Virus record (IMG/VR): IMGVR_UViG_3300013767_000020
Location: 1-31,098 of that record
Reading direction: 5' to 3' (one strand)
Length of the DNA: 31,098 nt
Origin: a virus
Taxonomy: Duplodnaviria > Caudoviricetes
Part shown: piece after piece, positions 223 through 31,098 of the stretch
Layout of the letters: each line of letters opens with the position of its first letter
Position numbering within the stretch: the stretch's first letter is position 1
Translations under genes and position numbers: made by a program
The notes under the pieces: generated by a model
Told to the model about the DNA's origin: nothing
The model's database searches: none
Seen by the model: only the letters and a program-made list of their open reading frames with translations

Positions 223-638
223 GGCCGCTCCTTCGTGAACGTGACGCGCAGACCGTGGAGCGACGCGCAAGGATCAACGCCGGCCGTCTGTGCTTGGACC
301 TTTCCGGCCAGCAGGGTGTACTTCGATTGGGCCGCCTGAGCGTCGGCGTCGGCCTTGGCCGCCTGATACTGCCGCAGCTTGGTCTGCGCCTGCAGATCGG
401 CGACTGCGGCGTTTTGCGTGCCGAGCATGTTGGACAGTTCGCGGTTGTCGGTCTGTGCCTTGGTCAGATCGGACTGAGCCTGTGCCAGATCGGCACGCGC
501 CGAGTCGCGCTCGTGGCGGTAGACCAGCATCGAGCCGACGGCCAGCGCGAGAACAACCAGCACTGCGGCAACGAAGATGCGCTCGGGCGTGGCAAATATG
601 GCCCTCAGCGCAGTGCCGATGGCTTCAAGAATCAGCAT
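219..638 (-). CDS. Rz: i-spanin (Rz-like)
   Basis: N-terminal TM helix (IFVAAVLVVLALAVGSMLVY), Ala/Gln coiled coil, C-terminal Cys; directly upstream of a lipoprotein at the end of the lysis cassette. Confidence 0.85.
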   Translation of the reverse strand: MLILEAIGTALRAIFATPERIFVAAVLVVLALAVGSMLVYRHERDSARADLAQAQSDLTKAQTDNRELSNMLGTQNAAVADLQAQTKLRQYQAAKADADAQAAQSKYTLLAGKVQAQTAGVDPCASLHGLRVTFTKERP

Positions 639-1116
639 GGTGGATAACCTCCGTCGGGCTGAACTGGTAGCCTTCCCGCGCGTATTTCTGGGCGATCCAC
701 AGCGGGAAGGGCATGTCGTGGATACCGGCGTCCTTGCCGGTGTGGTGCATCTTGCAGAGCAGCAGCCCGTTGACCGTCATGTCGTCGACAAAGGCGTACG
801 GGTCGGCTGGATTGAAGGCGTCCCAGTTGAATGCCGCGGCGTGCGGACCAAGCGCGCCGGACTTGGCGAACTCGGCCACGCTGGCCCAGTCGATCATGTT
901 GGCCAGCGACCGCTCAATTGGGTGGTGGTGCGCCTCGAGCGGGTGGCCGCTCTCTTCCGCCGTGCAACCGCAGATCCAGCAGCGGCCGCCCTCGCGCGCG
1001 ATCAGCGCCTTCTTCGAATGCAGAAACAGTGGCGTGGTGGTGCGCGCCTCATGCCCCGGCAGCAGCACGTCGACGGCCAGCGTCTCTTTCTCTTCGTGGG
1101 TATCGGTGACGGCCAT
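625..1116 (-). CDS. HNH-like Zn-binding protein (163 aa) within the lysis cassette
   Basis: Start MAVTDT after GGAGGG RBS; CWICG...LEAHHHP...NGLLLCKMHH resembles an HNH beta-beta-alpha-metal motif. Confidence 0.6.
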   Translation of the reverse strand: MAVTDTHEEKETLAVDVLLPGHEARTTTPLFLHSKKALIAREGGRCWICGCTAEESGHPLEAHHHPIERSLANMIDWASVAEFAKSGALGPHAAAFNWDAFNPADPYAFVDDMTVNGLLLCKMHHTGKDAGIHDMPFPLWIAQKYAREGYQFSPTEVIHHADS

Positions 1117-1127
1117 AGGCCCTCCAG

Positions 1128-1157
1128 AAAAGCAAAAGCCCCGCGCGCGGCGGGGCT
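1128..1157 (-). terminator. Intrinsic terminator (minus strand)
   Basis: AGCCCCGC/GCGGGGCT stem followed by TTTTGCTTTT on the minus strand. Confidence 0.75.
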
Positions 1158-1175
1158 GGGTGGGGTGTGTCGAGG

Positions 1176-1472
1176 TCAGTCGACGTCGGGCAGATCGACC
1201 GTTTGGCCGGCCAGCGCGTGTGTGCAGTCGCCAAGGAACTGGATTTGCCCTTCCCTGACGAACGAATGGCAGACACGCTGCTCGCGGTCCTTTCCCCACG
1301 GATAAGTCACGAGAACAGACGGGGAGAATGTCGGCTTATCCATGCTGCCATTCCACTGCCAAAGGGGGTGTCCTGCGCCGGCAACGTGGACGACGTGCAG
1401 CATGTCGCAGCCAGGGCATTCGAATAGCAATGACTGCACGCCGTCTTCACGCTTAAACTCTTCGAGTTTCAT
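1176..1472 (-). CDS. Small Cys/His metal-binding protein, DUF6527-like (98 aa)
   Basis: ATG overlaps endolysin stop; FECPGC-x2-H...WQWNGSMDKPTFSPSV...CHSFVREGQIQFLGDCTH pattern recalled as DUF6527. Confidence 0.7.
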   Translation of the reverse strand: MKLEEFKREDGVQSLLFECPGCDMLHVVHVAGAGHPLWQWNGSMDKPTFSPSVLVTYPWGKDREQRVCHSFVREGQIQFLGDCTHALAGQTVDLPDVD

Positions 1473-2360: not shown

Positions 2361-2375
2361 GTGAGACCCCGGGAA

Positions 2376-2399
2376 GAAAAAAGCCGCTCAGAGGCGGCT
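2376..2399 (-). terminator. Intrinsic terminator upstream of holin (minus strand)
   Basis: AGCCGC/GCGGCT stem plus T7 on the minus strand. Confidence 0.7.
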
Positions 2400-2413
2400 G
2401 TGGTTGGTGTTAC

Positions 2414-2442
2414 TTGTAAACTCCGCGCTAATGTCTTAGCAT
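2414..2442 (+). promoter_or_regulatory. Putative sigma70 promoter of the plus-strand moron
   Basis: TTGTAA-17 nt-TAGCAT, ending about 40 nt upstream of the ATG at 2484 (GGGAGA RBS). Confidence 0.5.
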
Positions 2443-2483
2443 ACGCATGTGCTCAAAGCACAAACATTCACGGGAGAACAGCA

Positions 2484-3314
2484 ATGCAGTTCGTCAGAAG
2501 ATTCGTAGTGGCGGCAGTCGCCTGTCTAGTTACAGCCTGCGGTGGCGGCGAGGATTCCAGTCCAGCGCAACAGGCTCAGGTAACGCCAGTGACGACGCCC
2601 ACAAGTACTCCGGCGCCGGTAGCGGCGATTCCTGCGCCAGCGCCGGCCGCCACTTTGACACCCACGCCCGCTCCGGTCGTCGCGCCTGCACCAAAGCCGC
2701 CAACACCCATCCTCATTGAGGTCTACGGCGACGACGCGATGCGTGGCATGACGTCAATGATGGGCGTTGCACAGCAGAGCGAGACGGTTCAGTCGCAAGC
2801 GTTGCTTCGCGCTCAGTCCGGCGACGGAATCACGATCATCAACCGCGCGACGGGCGGCAGGTCAAGCAGCCTCAAGAACCAAATGAACGGCATGGACGGC
2901 AACGGCGCACCGTTCGCGGATCGCATCAAGACGTCAGCCGCGAGCATCGTCATAGACAACCATGCGATGAACGATGCGCTTGGCGGCGAGACGTTGGACG
3001 AATATCGCCAGTACCTGGCGCAGTGGGTCACCGCAGTCAGGGCGGCCGGCAAGACGCCTGTGTTGGAAGAGCCGAATCCGGTGTGTGATGGCGACCACCC
3101 GCGACTGGCGGCCTACGTGGCAGCAATGAACGATGCGGCGGTACAGTTCAGCGTGCCGCTGGTGAAGCAGTACGACTACATCCAGACGTTGCCGAACTGG
3201 CAGAGCCATATGTCAGGCTGCCTCTACCCAGACGAGTGGATGTTGCAGGTTAAGGGGCAGCGGCAGGCGGAGGTGCTGAGGCCGATTGTTGTGCACCTGT
3301 TGAGTGCGGAGTAA
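2484..3314 (+). CDS. Lipoprotein with Pro/Thr/Ala linker and SGNH/GDSL-fold domain (catalytic residues degenerate)
   Basis: Signal peptide with LVTAC lipobox; IEVYGDD block I-like, NRATGG block II-like, NHAMND block III-like, CLYPD block V-like. Confidence 0.75.
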   Translation: MQFVRRFVVAAVACLVTACGGGEDSSPAQQAQVTPVTTPTSTPAPVAAIPAPAPAATLTPTPAPVVAPAPKPPTPILIEVYGDDAMRGMTSMMGVAQQSETVQSQALLRAQSGDGITIINRATGGRSSSLKNQMNGMDGNGAPFADRIKTSAASIVIDNHAMNDALGGETLDEYRQYLAQWVTAVRAAGKTPVLEEPNPVCDGDHPRLAAYVAAMNDAAVQFSVPLVKQYDYIQTLPNWQSHMSGCLYPDEWMLQVKGQRQAEVLRPIVVHLLSAE

Positions 3315-3371
3315 CCCGCATCGATAAACAAGGAACGGAGCGATCTATGGCATCATTCCGTTTCCCCAAAA

Positions 3372-4595
3372 GTGGAAACAAAAATGGACCTGTTCAGTCC
3401 TTGGTATTTTGCTGCGATCATTTTCGTCGCCATGGTTGTCGTGTCACCAAAACGACTGTTCGCAAGCATAGATAGTGGATCAACGGCCGGCCGTCTTGAT
3501 ACGCTAGACGGATTGCGTGGCTTTCTGGCGCTCGCGGTATTTGCGCATCACGCGGCAATCACCTACGGATTCCTCAAAACAGGGAATTGGGCATTGCCGC
3601 CATCGAACTTTTACAAGCTTCTCGGCCAGACCGGTGTTTCCTTTTTCTTCATGATCACCGGCTATCTATTCTGGAGTCGCCTTCTTAATGCACGGGAGAG
3701 CGTTGACTGGAAAGGCTTGTTCATTGGTCGAATTTTCCGGATCGGGCCCCTCTATCTCTTTGCCGCCATTGTCGCGATCACTATTTCGCTGCACCGGACC
3801 AGTTGGTCGCTAAAGTATCCCATTTCTGATGTGGCGCTGCAGGTTGCCCAATGGCTGGCTCTTGGGTTGTATGGGCAGCCAGCAGTTAACGGTTACAACA
3901 CGGGCCAGTTACTTGCCGGCGTTACGTGGACCATTTACTACGAATGGATCTTCTATTTTGCGCTTCCGGCCCTGAGCATAGCGGCGGCATCACGTTCGCA
4001 TTTGGCGATCATCGTCACAGCGATCTGGATGATTCCGCGAATGCCCAGCGTATTCCCGGATCCGGAAAAATACCTTATCACCCTGTTTCTGTGCGGGATG
4101 CTGACGGCGTCGCTACACAAGAAGTTTCCGGGTATGTCGTTAAAATCACCCCCGTTTTCCGTCGCCGCGGTCTGCTTGCTTGGCTACCTTTACGCCAACT
4201 TTGATACTGCTTTCGACTGGACCGCGATCGCCATAATGATGGGATTCTTTCTTATCGTCGCCTCGGGATCCTCGTTGTTCGGTCTTCTGACCTCACGCCC
4301 CGCTCTCCGCCTCGGCAACATCAGCTACAGCATCTATCTCCTGCACGGCCTTACCCTGACCGCCATGTTCTCGCCCAAGTTCCCACTAGGCGCCTGGGCA
4401 ATGGCCAGCACCAGGCACTACTGGGCAGCGATCATGATCACTGCGATCGCGGTTGTACTCGTATCGATCGCTGCTTACCTGCTCATCGAGCGCCCCGGCA
4501 TATCCATCGGGAAGCAGCTCTCCAAAGCCCTGAAGACGGGCTATTGGAAGGCCGCACCGAAGAACGTGAATGCCGATCAGGTGCCAGCGGGATAG
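3372..4595 (+). CDS. Acyltransferase family 3 (OafA/Oac-like membrane O-acyltransferase)
   Basis: [60 protein letters not shown] motifs; about 10 TM segments; visibly lower GC than flanks; start may be the ATG at 3384. Confidence 0.92.
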
Positions 4596-6316: not shown

Positions 6317-6340
6317 AAAAAGCCCGCTCGAGGCGGGCTT
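6317..6340 (-). terminator. Intrinsic terminator after HNH gene
   Basis: AAGCCCGC/GCGGGCTT stem plus T tract on the minus strand. Confidence 0.75.
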
Positions 6341-6362: not shown

Positions 6363-7043
6363 TTAGCTTTCGCGCATGCGAATGCTGATCCGATGGCGGT
6401 CTGCTCTAGGGGTGAGTGGCGCGGTCAGCGCCTTTTCGGCGGGCCATCCTTTATTCAGGCGCCTTATGATCGTGGCTGAGGCAATTCCTTTCCTCGCGGA
6501 CCACTCTGAGACTGTAAGCGTTTCGCCGAACGCCTCAACGTAGCGATTTGATCTGCGGTTGTTTGCCTGTTGGGCTGGCGTTGCCCACCGGCAGTTTCCG
6601 GGTTCATAGTTGCCATCCACCTCAATCCGGTCCAACGTAGTTCCGTCCGGGCGCGGCCCCATATCAGCGTAGAAGCTCTCGAACGACCCCGCCCACCTGT
6701 CGCAAACCTTTATGCCGCGCCCACCGTAGTTTTTGTGCTGCGGGTGATGCTCTTGGTTGCACCGCCTCAACATCTCGTAATACGCAGCCCACTCGACCCC
6801 ATGAGACAAACCATGCTTGCGATTTCCTAGGTTTTGCTCGCCTTTTCGCCCTCTGTAGCATCCGCACGATTTTGTATGGCCGGTAACGAGAAGTAGCGAC
6901 ATAACCGACTTCATCCTGCCGCATTCGCAGCGACACTGAACGTGCCACTTGGCATTTCTTCTGGCATCTAGCTTGAACGGCGCGCCGATGACGGTGAGGC
7001 GCGAAAATTTCGCGCCGACTGGGGTAAAATCGTGAGAAGCCAT
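6363..7043 (-). CDS. Free-standing HNH-type (homing-like) endonuclease
   Basis: CRCECG...TKSCGC, YGGRGIKVCDRW, TLDRIEVDGNYEPGNCRWAT...QANNRR motifs of a common phage HNH family; GGAG RBS. Confidence 0.85.
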   Translation of the reverse strand: MASHDFTPVGAKFSRLTVIGAPFKLDARRNAKWHVQCRCECGRMKSVMSLLLVTGHTKSCGCYRGRKGEQNLGNRKHGLSHGVEWAAYYEMLRRCNQEHHPQHKNYGGRGIKVCDRWAGSFESFYADMGPRPDGTTLDRIEVDGNYEPGNCRWATPAQQANNRRSNRYVEAFGETLTVSEWSARKGIASATIIRRLNKGWPAEKALTAPLTPRADRHRISIRMRES

Positions 7044-7120
7044 CGCTCGATCTCCAGTATCGGATGGTGGTCAGAAGCCCGCTCGGTGGTGGAACACCTT
7101 GCGGGCTTTGCTAATTTTAC
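7025..7120 (+). ncRNA. Predicted cis-antisense RNA module over the HNH RBS/start (copy 1)
   Basis: Plus-strand TAAAAT at 7025-7030, CCATC/GATGG hairpin, AAGCCCGC/GCGGGCTT hairpin, ATTTTAC; homologous to 17900-17995. Confidence 0.6.
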
Positions 7121-7136
7121 TGCTAAATCGTTATCT

Positions 7137-7805
7137 CTAGCTGGAAATATTGACCCAGACGGTCGTGGCTACGGGGCGTGTCGCCTCGATAGCCGCGTAG
7201 ATGTCGGCATCTGTAACCGCACCCTGGATCGAAGACATAGACGCGTAATCCGCCTGCGACGGCTGCGCATAACCGCCTGTCGAGATTCCATAGCCGGCGA
7301 CGTTCGGGATGCCGGTACCAGCCGGGCGATAGGCGATGACGAAACACTGGTACGGCATGAGCAGAGAGCCGTAGGCCCCGGCCACTCCATACCCAATCGT
7401 CGGGCCGCCATACGCGCCGGTATCGGCCGGTCGCGTCGGCTCGATGATTTTCGGCGTCCGCCCAGTCAGATCTTGGAGAGCCTTGACCATCCCGTTTCGT
7501 GTCGCGCGTTCGCGAAACAGGTTCAATCTGATCCGCGACCGAAACGAAGCGTCCGACTGATTGGCTGAGCGCTGCAACGACGCACCGAAAAAGTCGGCCG
7601 CGATCATGTCGAGCCAGCCATCTGTCGCGCTCAAAATCCGCGTCTGCAGCTTCGCGTAGGCGTAGAGGCTGTAGATGTACGCCCCCGAGTAGGCCAGTCC
7701 CTGCAGCAGCGCGTTCAGGATCGGTGATTGCGCTTCGTCGCCGAACCATCGCGGGAGGTAGCCCCGCAGCCGATGGTAGATGTCCTGCTGATCGCCGACG
7801 CTCAT
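7137..7805 (-). CDS. Baseplate wedge protein (P2 gpI/Mu gp48-like)
   Basis: ATDGWLDMIAADFFG...R..NQSDASFRSRI motif; follows baseplate J. Confidence 0.75.
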   Translation of the reverse strand: MSVGDQQDIYHRLRGYLPRWFGDEAQSPILNALLQGLAYSGAYIYSLYAYAKLQTRILSATDGWLDMIAADFFGASLQRSANQSDASFRSRIRLNLFRERATRNGMVKALQDLTGRTPKIIEPTRPADTGAYGGPTIGYGVAGAYGSLLMPYQCFVIAYRPAGTGIPNVAGYGISTGGYAQPSQADYASMSSIQGAVTDADIYAAIEATRPVATTVWVNISS

Positions 7806-8933
7806 TTAACTCACCACTACTGAAGACCACTTTACGACCTGCAAAGACGTCGCCGCCAGATCAGCCGTGCCGCCGTTTAGGGTGACTGCCGTGATGTTTG
7901 TCACGCCAGGCGAGGCGTCGTAAGCAACCTGCGCCAGTCGCGAATAAGGCAGCGTCTGGCCGAGCTTTAGGCTGTTGATGTAGTTCTTCAGCGCCGTCAC
8001 GATCAGGGCCTTGGTGGCTACCGGGTCATACCCGGCCGCAATGGCCGCGGTCATGGCTACTGTGGCATTCACGACCACCGGTGCAAAGACACCGAAGCTG
8101 CTGCAGAGCGGCCGAACTGCATCGATCGCGTTCGATGCCGACGATAGAAGCGTCGAGGATGGAGAGCCCGTCCCATCGTCGACTACGGCGAAGAAGTAGC
8201 CCATCTGCGTCGCGCCGCCGTAGGTCTGGTTCTCGACCAGCGAATAGCTCAGGCCCTGCTGAAGCGACGTGATGGCGTAACCGACTGCCGCCTTGGTTGC
8301 CTTCGACAGGCTTGCCACGTAGGCAATGAATCGCGTGCGCAGCGCGGCGTCGCTCTCGGCGTCGGCACCATTGGTGAAGGCCGCCGTGTTGGTGACCGTA
8401 TCGACGCCGGAGATCGCGCCGACGATGGTCGACACAGCGCCTATGACGGCATTACCAGCCGCGCCAGAGACGACCGCCTGAACTGGCACATTCACGCTCG
8501 CCACGCCGGCCGCGATCACATAGCCGCCCAGCGTCGCGCTGTACGCCGGATTCGTCGTGTCCACCACCACGTTGAACTGCTGCGTGCCGTCGGCGGTTTG
8601 GACAACGGCAGTCAACGGAACGACAACCTGCTGCGTCGTCGTGAACCGCGAGAATGTGACGGTGCCGGTGGCAGCCACCGCAGCGAGTCGCGTCACGCCG
8701 AAGTCCGCCACCCACGAATCGAGATCCGCGCCGCTCGACGTCGCCGCACGGGTGATGGCCAGCACCTGCATGATCAGGCCCTGAAGCCAGATCGTCACTG
8801 CGGCGTTGGCTTCCACGACGGCGCGCAGGATAGAGCCGACCGTGAGGTCAACCAGCACCTTCGCGTAACCTTGGATCGTGGATACCTGGTTTCGTACCAG
8901 GGTTACCCAGTCCTGCACCTGAATGGATGCCAT
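7806..8933 (-). CDS. Baseplate J/gp47-like protein
   Basis: GADLDSWVADFGVTR..A..ATGTVTF, GAAGN, NGADAESDAALRTR motifs. Confidence 0.92.
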   Translation of the reverse strand: MASIQVQDWVTLVRNQVSTIQGYAKVLVDLTVGSILRAVVEANAAVTIWLQGLIMQVLAITRAATSSGADLDSWVADFGVTRLAAVAATGTVTFSRFTTTQQVVVPLTAVVQTADGTQQFNVVVDTTNPAYSATLGGYVIAAGVASVNVPVQAVVSGAAGNAVIGAVSTIVGAISGVDTVTNTAAFTNGADAESDAALRTRFIAYVASLSKATKAAVGYAITSLQQGLSYSLVENQTYGGATQMGYFFAVVDDGTGSPSSTLLSSASNAIDAVRPLCSSFGVFAPVVVNATVAMTAAIAAGYDPVATKALIVTALKNYINSLKLGQTLPYSRLAQVAYDASPGVTNITAVTLNGGTADLAATSLQVVKWSSVVVS

Positions 8934-17152: not shown

Positions 17153-17181
17153 AAAATAAAAAAGCCACCCGAAGGTGGCTT
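17153..17181 (-). terminator. Intrinsic terminator after HNH gene
   Basis: AAGCCACC-TTCG-GGTGGCTT plus T tract on the minus strand. Confidence 0.8.
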
Positions 17182-17201: not shown

Positions 17202-17918
17202 TTAAAGCAATCGCCCGTTTTCCATGGCGAAGTCGAATGGGTCCTTGTCCTTCTTGCGAAGGTTGCAGCGCTTGCATAGCAACTGAAGGTTGCTAGGCCA
17301 ATTTGAGCCACCCTTACTTAGCGCGACGATGTGGTCGACGTGGTATCCGCGACGGATACAACAGCCACAGCATGCGCATCGCCCGCGCTGAGAAGCGAAC
17401 AACTGCGAGATGTCCTTGCCGGTGTGATGGCCTGGCGCGGCACGCTTTCTTGCCTTGTAGTTCCACCGGAGAGCGCGGACCGCCTCAGGATTGGCTTGGC
17501 GCCACTCCCTGCTTTTCATCGCAACGTAATCCGCATTTCTTTCTTGCCATTTGCGCATGGCAGAAAGCCTCTTCGGTTTGTGCTTATAGTAATCCGCCAG
17601 CGCCCATTCGGCCCTCTTGGCTGGATTCTTCCTCGCCCAAGCCGCATTGAGCGCATCAAGGCGTTCGCGATTCGCCTGATAGTAGGCGGCGTAGTATGGC
17701 CTCATGCGCTCGCGATTTGCTTCGGCCCAAGCCTTATTCGTTGCCCGCTTCTTCTCGCTGTTTTGCTCATACCAGCGCCTGCTGTCAGCGCTTTTGCATG
17801 CCTTGCAGTGAGATGAGAGCCCATCCCTGCTGGACTTGCGCTTGACGAAGTCGACTGCGGGCTTAGATTCGCCGCACTTTGTGCAGCATTTGACCGTGCT
17901 AGAATGCACATCAGCCAT
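17202..17918 (-). CDS. HNH endonuclease with N-terminal Zn ribbon and basic helical repeats
   Basis: CTKC...CKAC at the N-terminus; CACCG...HVDHIVALSKGGSNWPSNLQLLCKRCN canonical HNH; AGGAG RBS. Confidence 0.92.
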   Translation of the reverse strand: MADVHSSTVKCCTKCGESKPAVDFVKRKSSRDGLSSHCKACKSADSRRWYEQNSEKKRATNKAWAEANRERMRPYYAAYYQANRERLDALNAAWARKNPAKRAEWALADYYKHKPKRLSAMRKWQERNADYVAMKSREWRQANPEAVRALRWNYKARKRAAPGHHTGKDISQLFASQRGRCACCGCCIRRGYHVDHIVALSKGGSNWPSNLQLLCKRCNLRKKDKDPFDFAMENGRLL

Positions 17919-17995
17919 CGTTTGCTCCTGTAAAGCAGATGGTGGTTAGGAAGCCCGCACAGCGCGTCAACGCTTGCGGGCTTCCGTCATTTTAC
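17900..17995 (+). ncRNA. Predicted cis-antisense RNA module over the HNH RBS/start (copy 2)
   Basis: Extended -10 TGcTAGAAT (hexamer 17900-17905), CCATC/GATGG hairpin, GAAGCCCGC/GCGGGCTTC hairpin, ATTTTAC; homologous to 7025-7120. Confidence 0.6.
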
Positions 17996-18147
17996 GCCTT
18001 CGCGCCAGTCTTTGCTGGCGGATCGGCCGCGACCTGTACAACGTATGCAGATTGCTCGCTGCCGAGAATGGCCTTGATGGCGTCGGCGTCGGTGATCTGG
18101 TCGCCCACCTGGTAGGCGCCAAACGGCACCGTCACAACGAGTTTCAT
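17992..18147 (-). CDS. Small pre-sheath protein (51 aa)
   Basis: Read by hand: GGAG RBS, MKLVVTVPFGAYQVGDQITDADAIKAILGSEQSAYVVQVAADPPAKTGAKA*; small genes are common at this position in myophages. Confidence 0.7.
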   Translation of the reverse strand: MKLVVTVPFGAYQVGDQITDADAIKAILGSEQSAYVVQVAADPPAKTGAKA

Positions 18148-18149
18148 GG

Positions 18150-18989
18150 TCACTCCACGATGGTCTTAACTGCGAATTGGGAGGTCAGCGACGGGCCGGC
18201 GGTGATGTTCTCCACGCCGACTGTGATCTGGTAATCCGCCTCGGTCGCAATGGTCGAATACTCGACCGCGTACTGCAGGTCACGTCGATAGACGCGATCC
18301 TTCTGCGTCCCGTCGTCCGGCCGACTGCTTCGGTACCGGAGCGTCGCGTTCTGGTCGGGCAACGTCAGATGGACGGTGTTCGACAAAGCCGCGTCCAGCT
18401 TCGACGCGAGCGAGTCACGCAGCGCCGGGTCGTTCGCCCAGACAGCAATCAGGAATGTCCGCTCCTGCCGACGCGTCTCGCGCTGCGACGTCCCTCGACC
18501 GCCTACCCGCGGCGAGATGTATTTCGCGTTCGGGACGGTTACTACGGCGCCGGCGGCGGTCGCCGTCTGGTCTACCGCAACCAGTGCGGCCAGCGCCGAG
18601 GCGATGCTAGCCAGTGTGTCGGCCGGCTGGACAGCGTAGACGTAGCCTTTGCCGTCAACCACCAGCGCCGCGTTCTGCGGGGTGGATATCGTGCCGCCCA
18701 CGGTCACCGCCTGGCCTGCGAGGGTCAGCGTCACGGTGTTGGCCGGCGCCGTCGCCTGCGTCCAGTCGGACATGGCTGAATCTACGATCCGTTCCATGTT
18801 CGGCATAGGGAACACCGAGACGTGCACTTTGCCGACCGCAAGGTCAGCGTCCAGCGTCTGGGGCTGCGGCCAGCCGGGATAGACCATCACCGGCTTGTTC
18901 ACGATCGACGGCTGAGATGTCCCGCTCGGGTATGCAACCCCGGCCGCCAAGGTCACCAAGGCTGCGGAAACGTCGGAAATGTCGGCCAT
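18150..18989 (-). CDS. Tail terminator-like protein with internal beta-rich insertion
   Basis: Position before sheath; VYPGWP N-terminal and VYRRDLQYAVEY C-terminal segments. Confidence 0.65.
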   Translation of the reverse strand: MADISDVSAALVTLAAGVAYPSGTSQPSIVNKPVMVYPGWPQPQTLDADLAVGKVHVSVFPMPNMERIVDSAMSDWTQATAPANTVTLTLAGQAVTVGGTISTPQNAALVVDGKGYVYAVQPADTLASIASALAALVAVDQTATAAGAVVTVPNAKYISPRVGGRGTSQRETRRQERTFLIAVWANDPALRDSLASKLDAALSNTVHLTLPDQNATLRYRSSRPDDGTQKDRVYRRDLQYAVEYSTIATEADYQITVGVENITAGPSLTSQFAVKTIVE

Positions 18990-21898: not shown

Positions 21899-23308
21899 TT
21901 AGGCGCGACCGACGACCATCAGGCCTTCGTGGCGCATCTTGAGCTTGGCTTCGATGCGTTTCTGGCCGGTCAACCCTGCGGCATCGAGCACCTTGTCGGC
22001 CTGCTCCATCGACAGCTTCTTACCGTCGGAGAGAGCGTCCTCGCCGACACCGCCCTTGGCGAGCAGCGACTTGATCTCCGGCGACAGCGTCTTGCGGGTC
22101 GGCGCCTCAGCACTGGTGAACGCCTTGGCCTGCAGATCCTTGATCAGGGTCTGCGAAGATTCGAGCGCGTCCTGTACCGGCTTCACCGCCGCGGCGGTGG
22201 CGTCGGCAATCATCTTCGCGAGAGCGCCCTTGTCAGCGCTGGCTTCCACACGCGCGTCCGGCAGATAGTCGTGGTCGCGGTAGACGTTCGGAACCTTGCC
22301 CGACACAGCCTCAGCAGCCAGATGCGCTGCGACGCGGCGAATCACGCCAGCATGGCCGGCCTTGGCATCTGTGCCGACCCCGGCCTTTTCCATGGCATCA
22401 GCGGCGGCGTTGAGCGCGTCAACGTGGGGCTTCACCTGATCGATGATCGGGCCGCCCAGCGAGGCGCCCTTCGCTTCCAGATCGGTCACCTTGTCGGTCA
22501 GTGCGGTGACGGATGCCGCGATCGGCTTCAGCATGTCGCCCAGCAGGGCCTGCATTTCTTCCTTGGTCATTTCCAGTTCCTGTTCGGCCTGAGCGGCCAA
22601 TGATGTTGTGGTGTAGGCCGCGAGATGCTTGTACAGCACGGCCGCTCCGGTGAATACACAATGGTCGATTACCCAAGGGTCGGCATCTGTGTCAGAGATG
22701 GCTGCCAGGCATTCATACGAGAACCCCAACAGATTCTTCTCCGCTTTAATGCGCGCGCATTCTTCGGGAAAGTCGTTCGAATACAGGAAGCCCGCGATAT
22801 AAACCGCGTTTCCCTCAACTCTTGCTTCAGTGATTACCCCGATTTTGGATTTCTTGTCGTGGCCGTCAAAGTCTTTCGTATAGTCGATCGCCATCCCCAG
22901 CAGAGTGGGGATGGCCCTTTCTGCTACCGCCTTGGGGATGAGCGTCCGCTTGCCCGTGCTACCGTTCGGCGGGGCGTCGGATGGCTCATCAATGCGGGTC
23001 AGAATGCCGGAGAATGGCATCCGGTTTGGGTGATCCTCGACGTCTGGCATCTGGAGCGACATGGCGTCGAGGCTGAACGCCAGCGCATGCAACTCCCATC
23101 CTGATACGTCCATTCCGGACTCCTTCGCCTTACGGATGATCTTGTGCCGCGCCTCTTCGCGCTCTGCGTCAGACAGTCCTTGGGTGCGGGGCAGTTGCGA
23201 CCACGCCATGCGAATGTGTCTCTCGTCATGGATCGGAAGTGCCCGCTTACCGGGAACGGCGAAATCGCTGTCTGGTAGCGCGTCGCGTTGCTCTTTAGAG
23301 AGGGACAT
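21899..23308 (-). CDS. Prohead protease/scaffold with N-terminal DUF6582-like domain
   Basis: Start MSLSKEQRDALPDSDFAVPGKRALPIHD; central H...IGVIT...GFSYE protease-like motif; Ala-rich helical C-terminus. Confidence 0.75.
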   Translation of the reverse strand: MSLSKEQRDALPDSDFAVPGKRALPIHDERHIRMAWSQLPRTQGLSDAEREEARHKIIRKAKESGMDVSGWELHALAFSLDAMSLQMPDVEDHPNRMPFSGILTRIDEPSDAPPNGSTGKRTLIPKAVAERAIPTLLGMAIDYTKDFDGHDKKSKIGVITEARVEGNAVYIAGFLYSNDFPEECARIKAEKNLLGFSYECLAAISDTDADPWVIDHCVFTGAAVLYKHLAAYTTTSLAAQAEQELEMTKEEMQALLGDMLKPIAASVTALTDKVTDLEAKGASLGGPIIDQVKPHVDALNAAADAMEKAGVGTDAKAGHAGVIRRVAAHLAAEAVSGKVPNVYRDHDYLPDARVEASADKGALAKMIADATAAAVKPVQDALESSQTLIKDLQAKAFTSAEAPTRKTLSPEIKSLLAKGGVGEDALSDGKKLSMEQADKVLDAAGLTGQKRIEAKLKMRHEGLMVVGRA

Positions 23309-23885
23309 GGGCTGGCCTATATCCGTTCTGCTTGACCTTTGTGATGATCGAATCGTTGACAGAGAACTCGCGCGCGAGCGCGGCACCCTTTTCCCCATTT
23401 GCCAGGCGAGACTTGATCTCGGCGATCTGAGCGTCATTGAGCAAGCGGCGGCCTGGTCTGCCGCGCCGATTGGCAATCACCATGTTTCGACGGTGCTCCG
23501 CAGTGAAGGGCGCCTTCTTTACGCCTTTCTTGGCTGCGCTGATCTTGGCGCGGGTCGCATCCGACACCACAAGTCCCGTTCCGGCGGCCGTGACAGACTT
23601 CGCAATGTTGTACCCTCGCGCAGGGTTGGTGCATCGCGTGCTGTCGAGCCAAAATTGCTCACGCTCAAGCATCTCAGCACGATCCTCGATGTGCTCCAGG
23701 GCCATAAAAATGAACCCGTCTTGGCCGCCGTAAGCATCCCATGCTCCCTGCAAATGCCGAGAGTGATGCACTCCCTTTTCAAGCAGGAAACGATGGCGCA
23801 CCCATCTGCGCCTCATGTCGATCGACGAGCCAATATAGATCTTGCCGTTCACGATGTTCCGTATCAGGTATATTCCGCTCGCCAT
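23295..23885 (-). CDS. GIY-YIG endonuclease with NUMOD3-like and HTH segments
   Basis: SGIYLIRNIVNGKIYIGSS...RRW..H, EREQFW, GYN; SDATRAKISAAKKG. Confidence 0.92.
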   Translation of the reverse strand: MASGIYLIRNIVNGKIYIGSSIDMRRRWVRHRFLLEKGVHHSRHLQGAWDAYGGQDGFIFMALEHIEDRAEMLEREQFWLDSTRCTNPARGYNIAKSVTAAGTGLVVSDATRAKISAAKKGVKKAPFTAEHRRNMVIANRRGRPGRRLLNDAQIAEIKSRLANGEKGAALAREFSVNDSIITKVKQNGYRPAHVPL

Positions 23886-29213: not shown

Positions 29214-29289
29214 TGGTAGACCGCGCGGGATTCGAACCCGACCTAGCCACCTTGAAAGGGTGGTGACCTCACCAGAAGTCGAGCGGTCC
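29214..29289 (-). tRNA. tRNA-Glu (TTC)
   Basis: GGACCGC/GCGGTCT acceptor, CCACC-CTTTCAA-GGTGG anticodon arm, GTTCGAATCCC T arm, encoded CCA. Confidence 0.9.
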
Positions 29290-29293
29290 AAAC

Positions 29294-29368
29294 TGGAGCG
29301 GGCTGCGAGAATCGAACTCGCCTAGATAGCGTGGAAGGCTATCGCCTCAGCCAATCGGCCAAGCCCGC
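29294..29368 (-). tRNA. tRNA-Gly (TCC)
   Basis: GCGGGCT/AGCCCGC acceptor, T discriminator plus CCA, ATAGC-CTTCCAC-GCTAT anticodon arm, GTTCGATTC T loop. Confidence 0.92.
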
Positions 29369-29374
29369 AAAATC

Positions 29375-29465
29375 TGGCGGAAGATGCAGGAATCGAACCT
29401 GCGCAGCGGCTTGCGCCCACTGTACGGATTAGCAATCCGCTGCCTTACCGCTCGGCCAATCTTCC
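29375..29465 (-). tRNA. tRNA-Ser (GCT)
   Basis: GGAAGAT/ATCTTCC acceptor, G discriminator plus CCA, TTGCTAA loop, long variable arm. Confidence 0.94.
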
Positions 29466-30285: not shown

Positions 30286-30546
30286 TCATGGTCCAAAAAA
30301 TAGGCGCTCTACCCTCTCCTTTAATCTGGTGACGAGGGCCATGGCCGGCCGCGGATTGTTCCGATCCGCCAGGCACCCCATCAGTTTGTACGCGGTCGAG
30401 CCATCATCCATCACGTAAGCGATGACGATGCCCTTGACCTTCCCCGACTTAAAATCTGCTGCCACCTCGTCCAGCTCGTCACAAGCGTCACTTGTGGGTT
30501 CGCTTTGAAACAGAGGGACTACGTTGTTTTTTTTCGCTGCTCTCAT
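30286..30546 (-). CDS. Hypothetical protein overlapping the repressor 3' end
   Basis: 86 aa alpha/beta protein (NVVPLF...GKVKGIVIAYV), 59-nt overlap with the repressor. Confidence 0.7.
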   Translation of the reverse strand: MRAAKKNNVVPLFQSEPTSDACDELDEVAADFKSGKVKGIVIAYVMDDGSTAYKLMGCLADRNNPRPAMALVTRLKERVERLFFGP

Positions 30547-30952
30547 TGTCTGTGAGGGTGATTACCCGTCCTTTCGTTGCATCGGCTGATTTCTCATCCA
30601 GGTTGATGTGTCCAAGGAAGCCTTCCCGCTCCGTACTATCCACCATATCGAGCAACTCGACCAGTGCATCTAATTTGGCGCGTGGCAGCTCCAAAAGCTT
30701 GTCAAAAATCTGACGCGCAACCATGACATGCGCGTCCTCGATGTGAGATACGTCCATCCAGCCGTGCGGCTTCTTCGTGCCGAACTCCAGGCGGCGCGCG
30801 AGTTCGTCCCCGATCGCTCGGAACGCGCCCTTGCCCACGCACTGGGATAGGTAGCTCTGGGACGTTCCGGCGAGCTTGGCAACCGCCGTGAGGCTCCCCA
30901 CCTCCTTCTCGAGGAGGCGAACGTTCATGCGTCGAATAGTTTTGATATCCAT
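30488..30952 (-). CDS. CI-like XRE HTH repressor (154 aa), no S24 peptidase domain evident
   Basis: MDIKTIRRMNVRLL...AVAKLAGTSQSYLSQ...IGDELARRLE...PHGWMD typical prophage repressor N-domain; divergent from a cro-like gene. Confidence 0.85.
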   Translation of the reverse strand: MDIKTIRRMNVRLLEKEVGSLTAVAKLAGTSQSYLSQCVGKGAFRAIGDELARRLEFGTKKPHGWMDVSHIEDAHVMVARQIFDKLLELPRAKLDALVELLDMVDSTEREGFLGHINLDEKSADATKGRVITLTDNESSEKKQRSPSVSKRTHK

Positions 30953-30959
30953 GCCGCCA

Positions 30960-30987
30960 ATTCTAGCGCCATCAAAATTTATGTCAA
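30960..30987 (-). promoter_or_regulatory. Repressor promoter giving a probably leaderless mRNA
   Basis: TTGACA-16 nt-TAGAAT, 7 nt before the ATG at 30952; no Shine-Dalgarno. Confidence 0.75.
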
Positions 30988-31058
30988 CGCGTTCGCAACA
31001 TGCACATGATTTTGCGTTATAACGGGTGTGCACGACCAACCTAACGTGGAGATACCCT

Positions 31059-31098
31059 ATGAATCTGTCCGAATGGCTTGATGCGACTAGCACCGCCA
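31059..31098 (+). CDS. Cro-like regulator, 5' end only
   Basis: GGAGA RBS, MNLSEWLDATSTA..., divergent from the repressor; TATAAC -10 at 31018-31023. Confidence 0.6.
   Translation, partial: MNLSEWLDATSTA

Follow-up and report, generated by a model that had tools for sequence, protein, structure and literature searches.

Two unrelated HNH-family genes in the tail-gene region of a phage, headed by one common 95-base control unit

The locus and its phage

The window, the whole stretch of 31,098 nucleotides that was analysed, is a 31-kb virus record with a CheckV completeness of 64%; its minus strand carries terminase, portal, capsid, tail sheath, baseplate and lysozyme genes (Pfam, PHROG). Among cultured phages, the nearest relatives found belong to the Raharianne group of Ralstonia phages (~72% nucleotide identity), and a repressor-like gene at 30488-31093 suggests that the phage is temperate. 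Within the tail-gene region, two unrelated HNH-family genes are headed by one common 95-base control unit; the genes and the terminators behind them are listed here.

6363..7043, minus strand: HNH-family endonuclease gene 1, 226 aa; PHROG 374/3377; between a baseplate gene and a tail-fibre gene
6320..6340, minus strand: intrinsic terminator 3' of HNH gene 1; identical with the native terminator of the empty site (L199-L201)
17202..17918, minus strand: HNH endonuclease gene 2, 238 aa; Pfam HNH, HNH_5; PHROG 1035; upstream of the tail sheath gene
17162..17181, minus strand: intrinsic terminator 3' of HNH gene 2

The dissimilarity of the two proteins, claimed in the earlier note, is borne out by comparison (best BLASTP E 0.087). 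Protein 1 matches PHROG HNH families 374 (E 1.8e-58) and 3377 (E 8.9e-53), gives no match against Pfam and finds no relative among solved structures; the solved-structure relatives of protein 2 are Cas9-type HNH domains. Arginine occupies the usual histidine position of protein 1 and is common to all 14 motif-matching homologues (of 16 homologues), so that the exchange is, judged by these sequences, a family trait and not decay.

Site 1 is empty, with <150 nt before the tail-fibre gene, in 71 of the 80 viral loci that have the baseplate gene upstream; eight of the other nine have other inserts, one is unscorable, and HNH1 is in none. At site 2, 4/4 viral contigs are without HNH2; Raharianne and its kin are filled, with a leader that is diverged but complete. 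The covariance model (described below), run on 48 of the 84 site-1 and site-2 loci, found no module. Each cassette sits between a stop codon and the native terminator. Both HNH genes are insertions in the phage tail operon and look like free-standing homing endonucleases, being endonuclease-family reading frames of sporadic occurrence with empty alleles in relatives.

Site 1 (window 7136-6301) is also an insertion hotspot, where unrelated inserts of 0.4-2.8 kb are found in relatives (L194, L203, L204, L210, L219, L271). At several empty sites (L227-L245), the gap that follows the baseplate gene contains a C/A-rich run, similar to CTAACCAC, right before the terminator hairpin, the reverse of the module order; this run is possibly chance, possibly raw material for the module.

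Layout of the two leader copies

7025..7030, plus strand: antisense -10 hexamer TAAAAT (predicted), within codons 5-7 of HNH gene 1; lacks both a TG extension and a -35 consensus
7038..7113, plus strand: predicted antisense RNA 1, ~72-82 nt; 3' end uncertain (7110-7119); start from the SymR register; 72 bits with model R2
7039-7071, plus strand: proximal hairpin of RNA 1, anti-Shine-Dalgarno CUCC in a 7-nt loop (7052-7058)
7074-7109, plus strand: distal hairpin of RNA 1, from the MFE fold
7052..7055, minus strand: Shine-Dalgarno-like GGAG of HNH gene 1, 8 nt from the ATG; from sequence
7067..7074, minus strand: box CTRACCAC, conserved, whose antisense-strand counterpart pairs with the RNA 5' end through G-U pairs
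7114..7119, minus strand: predicted sense -10 TAAAAT of copy 1, just upstream of the distal hairpin; doubles as the U-rich tail of the antisense RNA
17897..17905, plus strand: predicted extended -10 for the antisense RNA, TGc TAGAAT, lying in codons 5-8 of HNH gene 2; hexamer and offset as at E. coli symR
17913..17988, plus strand: predicted antisense RNA 2, ~73-82 nt; 60.4 bits with model R2
17913-17947, plus strand: proximal hairpin of RNA 2, from the fold
17949-17985, plus strand: distal hairpin of RNA 2, from the fold
17925..17928, minus strand: Shine-Dalgarno-like GGAG of HNH gene 2; from sequence
17989..17994, minus strand: predicted sense -10 TAAAAT of copy 2; bases 1-3 are likely to serve as stop codon for the 156-nt upstream gene (18147-17992)

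The earlier note had aligned the leaders as a -10 box, exactly 10 nt and the complement of the start codon, and so the sequence reads (TAAAAT at 7025-7030 and TAGAAT at 17900-17905, followed after exactly 10 nt by 7041-7043 and 17916-17918, respectively); the distance of 77 nt from start codon to motif end holds for both copies, and the four covarying tetramers named there are present and paired in the MFE folds. Two of its figures need changing: the spacer between GCGGGCTT and ATTTTAC, given as 4 nt, is 5 nt in both copies, and the RNA starts, given as 7037 and 17912, are likelier 7038 and 17913 by register with SymR, because SymR begins at the sixth base of symE and the same hexamer and offset are found at copy 2. 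The core GCCATCG..GATGGTGGTYAG has two occurrences in the window, and 0 of 100 shuffles had any match. Plus-strand folds of both copies give two hairpins (z -3.98 for copy 1, -7.80 for copy 2), the inner distal stem of copy 2 being shifted by one base relative to copy 1. A plain promoter scan of the window called neither antisense promoter. The position of the copy-2 sense -10 reads TAGAAT in phage Raharianne.

A third endonuclease gene of the window, of GIY-YIG type (23295-23885, minus strand), is without the antisense leader; its start abuts the stop of the upstream gene, to which it looks translationally coupled. Neither the pattern nor the covariance model found a third copy of the module at this gene, and 1/20 of its homologues has a marginal model match of 13.5 bits. 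A further HNH-family match near the lysis genes (625-1299, minus strand; PHROG 8048) is likewise without the module.

A family of leaders on unrelated genes

Viral sequences were searched with a pattern of the box and ATGGCT, ending at ATGGCT, so that the -10 was left out of selection; the 119 viral loci obtained reduce to 94 unique leaders, and 57 representatives were taken below 75% identity. For target labels, 34 of these and related proteins were run on PHROGs and Pfam, and labels were then transferred by BLASTP clusters. Among the targets of the 94 leaders, endonucleases number 40: one HNH cluster accounts for 32, and there are 4 further HNH proteins and 4 of GIY-YIG type, of which one was assigned by eye. 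The remainder are small satellite-type genes (26; PHROG 1743, Icd-like), small Cys-rich proteins (9), GroES-like proteins (3), helicases of SNF2 type (2), a Bro-N antirepressor, and 13 others that probably include 7 false matches. Covariance models were built from 48 viral leaders, with the window copies and every known RNA kept out, and give rough E-values; model R1 had helix 2 out of register by one column and was replaced by model R2. Left out of the 48 were L092, L093, L139 and L162 (without the distal hairpin) and L155, L169 and L170 (false by eye), which remain in the counts of 94 and 57; L115 lies too near a contig end and is not in the counts.

Model R2 gives the window copies 72 and 60 bits, within the range of the training set. 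This bears on the reading that the family is real and the window copies are decayed passengers without RNA production, which we hold to be barely credible: the -10 of copy 1 is indeed bare, with neither -35 nor TG extension, but no element is missing from either copy, and in the Raharianne orthologue the -10 and the fold persist although the stem sequence has changed.

Model matches were found at 2/16 homologues of HNH1 and 0/10 homologues of HNH2 (distant homologues, with most HNH2 matches confined to the N-terminus, and flanks of 800 nt). Since few of these homologues carry the module while unrelated genes do, the leader is, on the sequences collected, not tied to a protein family. BLASTN of the leader gave, among plasmids, nothing beyond short partial matches and, among phages, the Raharianne group (4 records) and 4 short matches. 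Scans with exact patterns gave 13 loci in genomes and 1 in metagenomes; being exact, these patterns are no measure of abundance.

In the uncultured phages L081, L085, L101, L106 and L147, the module lies at a similar site before a small Cys-rich gene or a GroES-like gene; in L081 and L085 the small Cys-rich gene is followed by the GroES-like gene, and where the leader directly heads the GroES-like gene, the first residues carry leader-type sequence. This arrangement suggests a leader kept after gene loss or grafting. On a GTDB contig (L292), a leader precedes a reading frame of at least 306 aa that is, by eye, integrase-like with an arm-binding domain. At one satellite-type locus (L021, 878-1079), Rfam matches to C4 RNA, c4-a1b1 and isrK adjoin the module, two antisense systems being stacked there.

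Conservation of the antisense -10

An antisense -10-like hexamer lies 12-13 nt from the ATG in 82 of the 94 unique viral leaders, as against a mean of 5.65 and a maximum of 28 in a shifted-window control, and a mean of 43 and a maximum of 54 under a synonymous-recoding null (1000 draws); among the 57 representatives, 45 have it (recoding mean 19, maximum 27), and all of these counts come from sequences that are akin and hence are not probabilities. It occurs in two codon phases (27 and 56). A TG extension is found at the antisense -10 in 11/94 relatives only, and -35 elements are not evident. Elsewhere in the window, 1/25 of the other correctly placed starts has an antisense -10, one of the 26 window starts being mis-positioned and left out of the count.

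For a reciprocal test, loci were picked on the distal hairpin and the box only: of 61 unique loci, 55 have a 5' arm that can form pairs with the antisense-strand box, as against a mean of 2.7 in the shifted control, and the antisense -10 is present in 52 of those 55. Satellite-type genes have GTAGCT or GCAGCT as the arm and the ATG 6 nt further on, with the spacing between arm and -10 unchanged. Because arm and -10 stay in register when the satellite-type ATG moves, the register belongs, so far as these alignments tell, to the RNA and not to the start codon. The same comparisons indicate that the antisense promoter is under selection of its own, beyond the requirement of the protein.

Fold, covariation and strand

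Covariation of the variable parts, seen in the two copies by the earlier note, extends to the larger alignments. RNAalifold on the unfitted 48-sequence alignment gives 14 pairs, 6 of them with two-sided changes; the alignment fitted to the model (A3; structure-fitted, 67 rows including 12 partial reverse-strand rows) has two-sided changes at 14/22 pairs, and 93% of its cells pair, versus 37-44% in slid controls. In each of the four helices, the ratio of G-U pairs to A-C mismatches points to the antisense strand (110:15, 10:4, 44:3 and 40:9; 55 full rows); helix 1 and the outer distal stem were chosen by the search patterns, the inner helices (10:4, 40:9) were not. The antisense strand has the more stable fold in 55/55 rows. 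By these measures the fold belongs to the antisense strand, and a conserved structure lies opposite the RBS and start codon, as in the cis-antisense class. The predicted antisense RNAs have short U tails, with on average 3.9-4.7 U in 8 nt.

The sense strand folds well too (z -2.87 for copy 1, -4.95 for copy 2), with its own Shine-Dalgarno sequence mostly paired in the predicted mRNA ensemble, and a cis hairpin in the sense mRNA could do part of the work. Hairpins that sequester the RBS are a known control of phage homing endonucleases (PMC2988022, PMC2677866); those of T4 I-TevI/II/III and segB and of Aeh1 mobE resemble the module in placing RNA structure at the RBS, but work in cis, with a late promoter inside the structure lifting their effect, and the passages on them in PMC2988022 describe no antisense RNA control. 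A leader acting in cis only, whose mRNA hairpins hide the RBS as in T4 I-TevI and Aeh1 mobE and whose antisense -10 is incidental, is nevertheless unlikely. It leaves unexplained why the -10 is kept in two codon phases more often than synonymous recoding would give, why wobble pairs favour the antisense strand, and why arm and -10 remain in register when the ATG moves; furthermore, the T4 scheme places the promoter so that late transcripts lack the hairpin, whereas here the sense -10 lies upstream of both hairpins.

The suggestion that the differing loops give each pair its own specificity is plausible in one respect and weakened in another: predicted co-folding gains are far larger for cognate (-100.6 and -78.5 kcal/mol) than for crossed pairs (-15.0 and -13.3), but raw duplex energies of crossed pairs are about half of the cognate ones, so cross-talk between the copies may remain.

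The distal end and the predicted sense promoter

A sense -10, 8-9 nt before the distal stem, is found in 18/35 non-satellite representatives versus a control mean of 0.74 and a maximum of 3, with TATAAT, TAGAAT and CACAAT as variants. In the 18 satellite-type representatives, the count of 5 equals the control maximum of 5, which is no enrichment, and the A-run remains. The double duty that the earlier note had offered for ATTTTA thus stands for stand-alone cassettes, where it is likely, from the pattern of bases, both tail and sense promoter, and is not borne out for satellite-type leaders. ATTTTA as a terminator tail alone was considered and rejected for stand-alone cassettes, since the variants keep the sense -10 pattern. 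Late sense transcription is predicted to pass through the distal hairpin, because that hairpin has no U-run on the sense strand.

Facing -10 hexamers at a fixed spacing, in both copies and in 18/35 non-satellite representatives, are what would be expected of transcriptional interference, in which both promoters are real, facing polymerases collide ~85 bp apart and RNA-RNA pairing is not the main event. We consider this improbable: interference has no need of a conserved, covarying antisense fold, and SymR represses in trans (PMC1891008).

Relation to SymR, Sar and the IncQ countertranscript

At the Rfam gathering level, the window gives two tRNAs only. Neither copy matches Rfam symR (RF01809) or sar (RF00262) at E up to 10; both miss the cut-offs of 61 bits (RF01809; positive control 95.3 bits), 43 bits (RF00262; positive control 97.8 bits; the opposite gene is no antirepressor) and 55 bits (RF00043, Plasmid_R1162; 18.2 bits for copy 1 and 27.7 for copy 2, positive control 82.4). 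The Rfam check proposed in the earlier note therefore returns no match at cut-off for either copy and a weak one to RF00043, on the mRNA strand. By cut-offs, then, the module is no member of RF01809, RF00262 or RF00043, and the targets differ.

Relatives come closer to symR: full-length symR matches are found in 5/18 viral relatives (33.7-40.8 bits), and Rfam symR matches the Raharianne orthologue of copy 2 across all 77 positions, with 42.6 bits. Conversely, the viral-leader model finds the symR locus at full length (30.9 bits, E 1e-9), the IncQ repA leader of pDN1 (17.9 bits) and P22 sar (17.3 bits), each at its annotated place on the antisense strand, the sar and IncQ scores being low. In one Pectobacterium genome, 4 of 9 full-length model matches head SymE-family genes. 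A whole-genome search of E. coli K-12 with the model gave a single weak match of 22.3 bits that was rejected, there being no ORF in register; under the stricter filters of that search, symR was missed.

SymR/symE (RF01809; PMC1891008) resembles copy 2 in having the antisense -10 TAGAAT 10 nt after the ATG, and both window copies have an antisense -10 in the first codons of the target at the offset of symE. SymR shares with the module two hairpins, a length of ~77 nt, a similar distal loop and the helix of 5' arm and box, the last with a compensatory C-G to U-A change. It differs in the distal stem sequence and in the target, an AbrB-fold SymE toxin as against an HNH gene here; the RF01809 target is a SymE-family gene under a LexA-controlled promoter, and no LexA-like box (CTG-N10-CAG) was found in 7001-7300 or 17881-18200. 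When the symR -10 was mutated, the RNA was lost and the amount of SymE protein rose more than sevenfold (PMC1891008).

Sar of P22 ant (RF00262) is like the module in its antisense promoter in the first codons (from annotation), in its AAGCCC..GGGCTT distal hairpin, which is the annotated terminator, and in its ~70 nt over the RBS; it differs in lacking the CTRACCAC box, in a proximal hairpin that cannot be aligned, in starting one base before the ATG and in its antirepressor target. The window copies match the model of the IncQ R1162/RSF1010 countertranscript (RF00043) at full length on the mRNA strand, and in the repA leader of pDN1, ATGGCT and a box are accompanied by a -10-like hexamer that follows the ATG at a distance of 10 nt. 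IncQ repA encodes the replication helicase, and the R1162 RNA serves copy-number control; target and role differ from those of the HNH leaders. As a side observation, the Rfam model RF00043, named 'R1162-like plasmid antisense RNA', matches the repA mRNA strand and not the antisense strand at L367 (3371-3442).

Taken on these likenesses, the module is likely to act as SymR does, and kinship between the two is probable. A search of the literature, covering few subscription journals and no supplementary motif catalogues, found no account of the leader family or of antisense control of a homing endonuclease.

SymR/symE is classed as a type I toxin-antitoxin system. A type I toxin-antitoxin reading (addiction or abortive infection) of the window, with an HNH toxin and an RNA antitoxin, could draw on this closest characterised relative and on the SymE-family leaders that the model finds. 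We regard it as quite improbable, and the type I framing of the earlier note finds no support: both genes are sporadic tail-operon insertions that belong to PHROG HNH endonuclease families and look like homing-endonuclease insertions, and the same leader type heads GroES-like, helicase and Bro-N genes.

Proposed mode of action

The conserved -10, the covariation, the fold on the antisense strand and the model matches at the symR and sar loci uphold the earlier idea of a portable leader akin to SymR and Sar, as far as comparison of sequences can carry it. We think it probable that a predicted cis-antisense RNA of ~75 nt damps translation of the endonuclease as SymR does for symE. Speaking against this reading are, among others, the bare hexamer of copy 1, the negative promoter scan, the short U tails, the predicted pairing of the Shine-Dalgarno sequence in the sense mRNA itself, the missing symR and sar matches in Rfam and the lack of the usual His in protein 1.

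A sigma-70 -10 hidden in codons 5-7 would fire backwards from the sixth base of the gene; the RNA would fold into a proximal hairpin, whose loop contains or borders the anti-Shine-Dalgarno sequence, and a distal hairpin, at which antisense transcription would end before reaching the upstream structural gene. The antisense RNA would pair with the RBS and start codon of the facing sense transcript, which may come from the cassette's own -10 or from late-operon read-through. Low-level mRNA would stay untranslated, the nuclease being made only when sense transcription outruns the antisense RNA, and the differing loops would keep the two copies largely specific.

In a wider reading, to which we lean slightly, plug-in antisense cassettes would form a single large family, as yet without a name, of which SymR, P22 Sar and the IncQ countertranscript are three captured members. 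Its cassettes would have been joined time and again to genes of unrelated kinds (several HNH families, GIY-YIG, SymE, satellite, Bro-N, helicase, GroES-like), with loop changes keeping same-genome copies orthogonal. As part of this one-family reading and with the same slight preference, the cassette would be a unit of ~100 bp made up of facing promoters, terminator, RBS and the first seven codons. If these readings are true, a selfish nuclease enters a strongly transcribed phage operon carrying its own silencer, whereas phage homing endonucleases are known to be controlled by a cis hairpin combined with a late promoter and not by antisense RNA; three Rfam families without a clan would be joined into one superfamily; the MA(D/T)xx(S/I/F)-type starts of many unrelated mobile genes would be explained by promoter and RNA constraints and not by the protein; and a natural library of small, likely orthogonal antisense repressors would be at hand.

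Other features of the window

A cluster of three tRNAs (Ser, Gly, Glu) lies at 29214-29465 on the minus strand, upstream of the terminase region; a tRNA-Arg called by ARAGORN at 8087-8183, inside the baseplate J gene, is probably false. At 2361-4595 on the plus strand, opposite the late operon and between tail and lysis genes, lie genes for a GDSL-like hydrolase and an Acyl_transf_3 acyltransferase; the pair is probably a surface-modifying moron.
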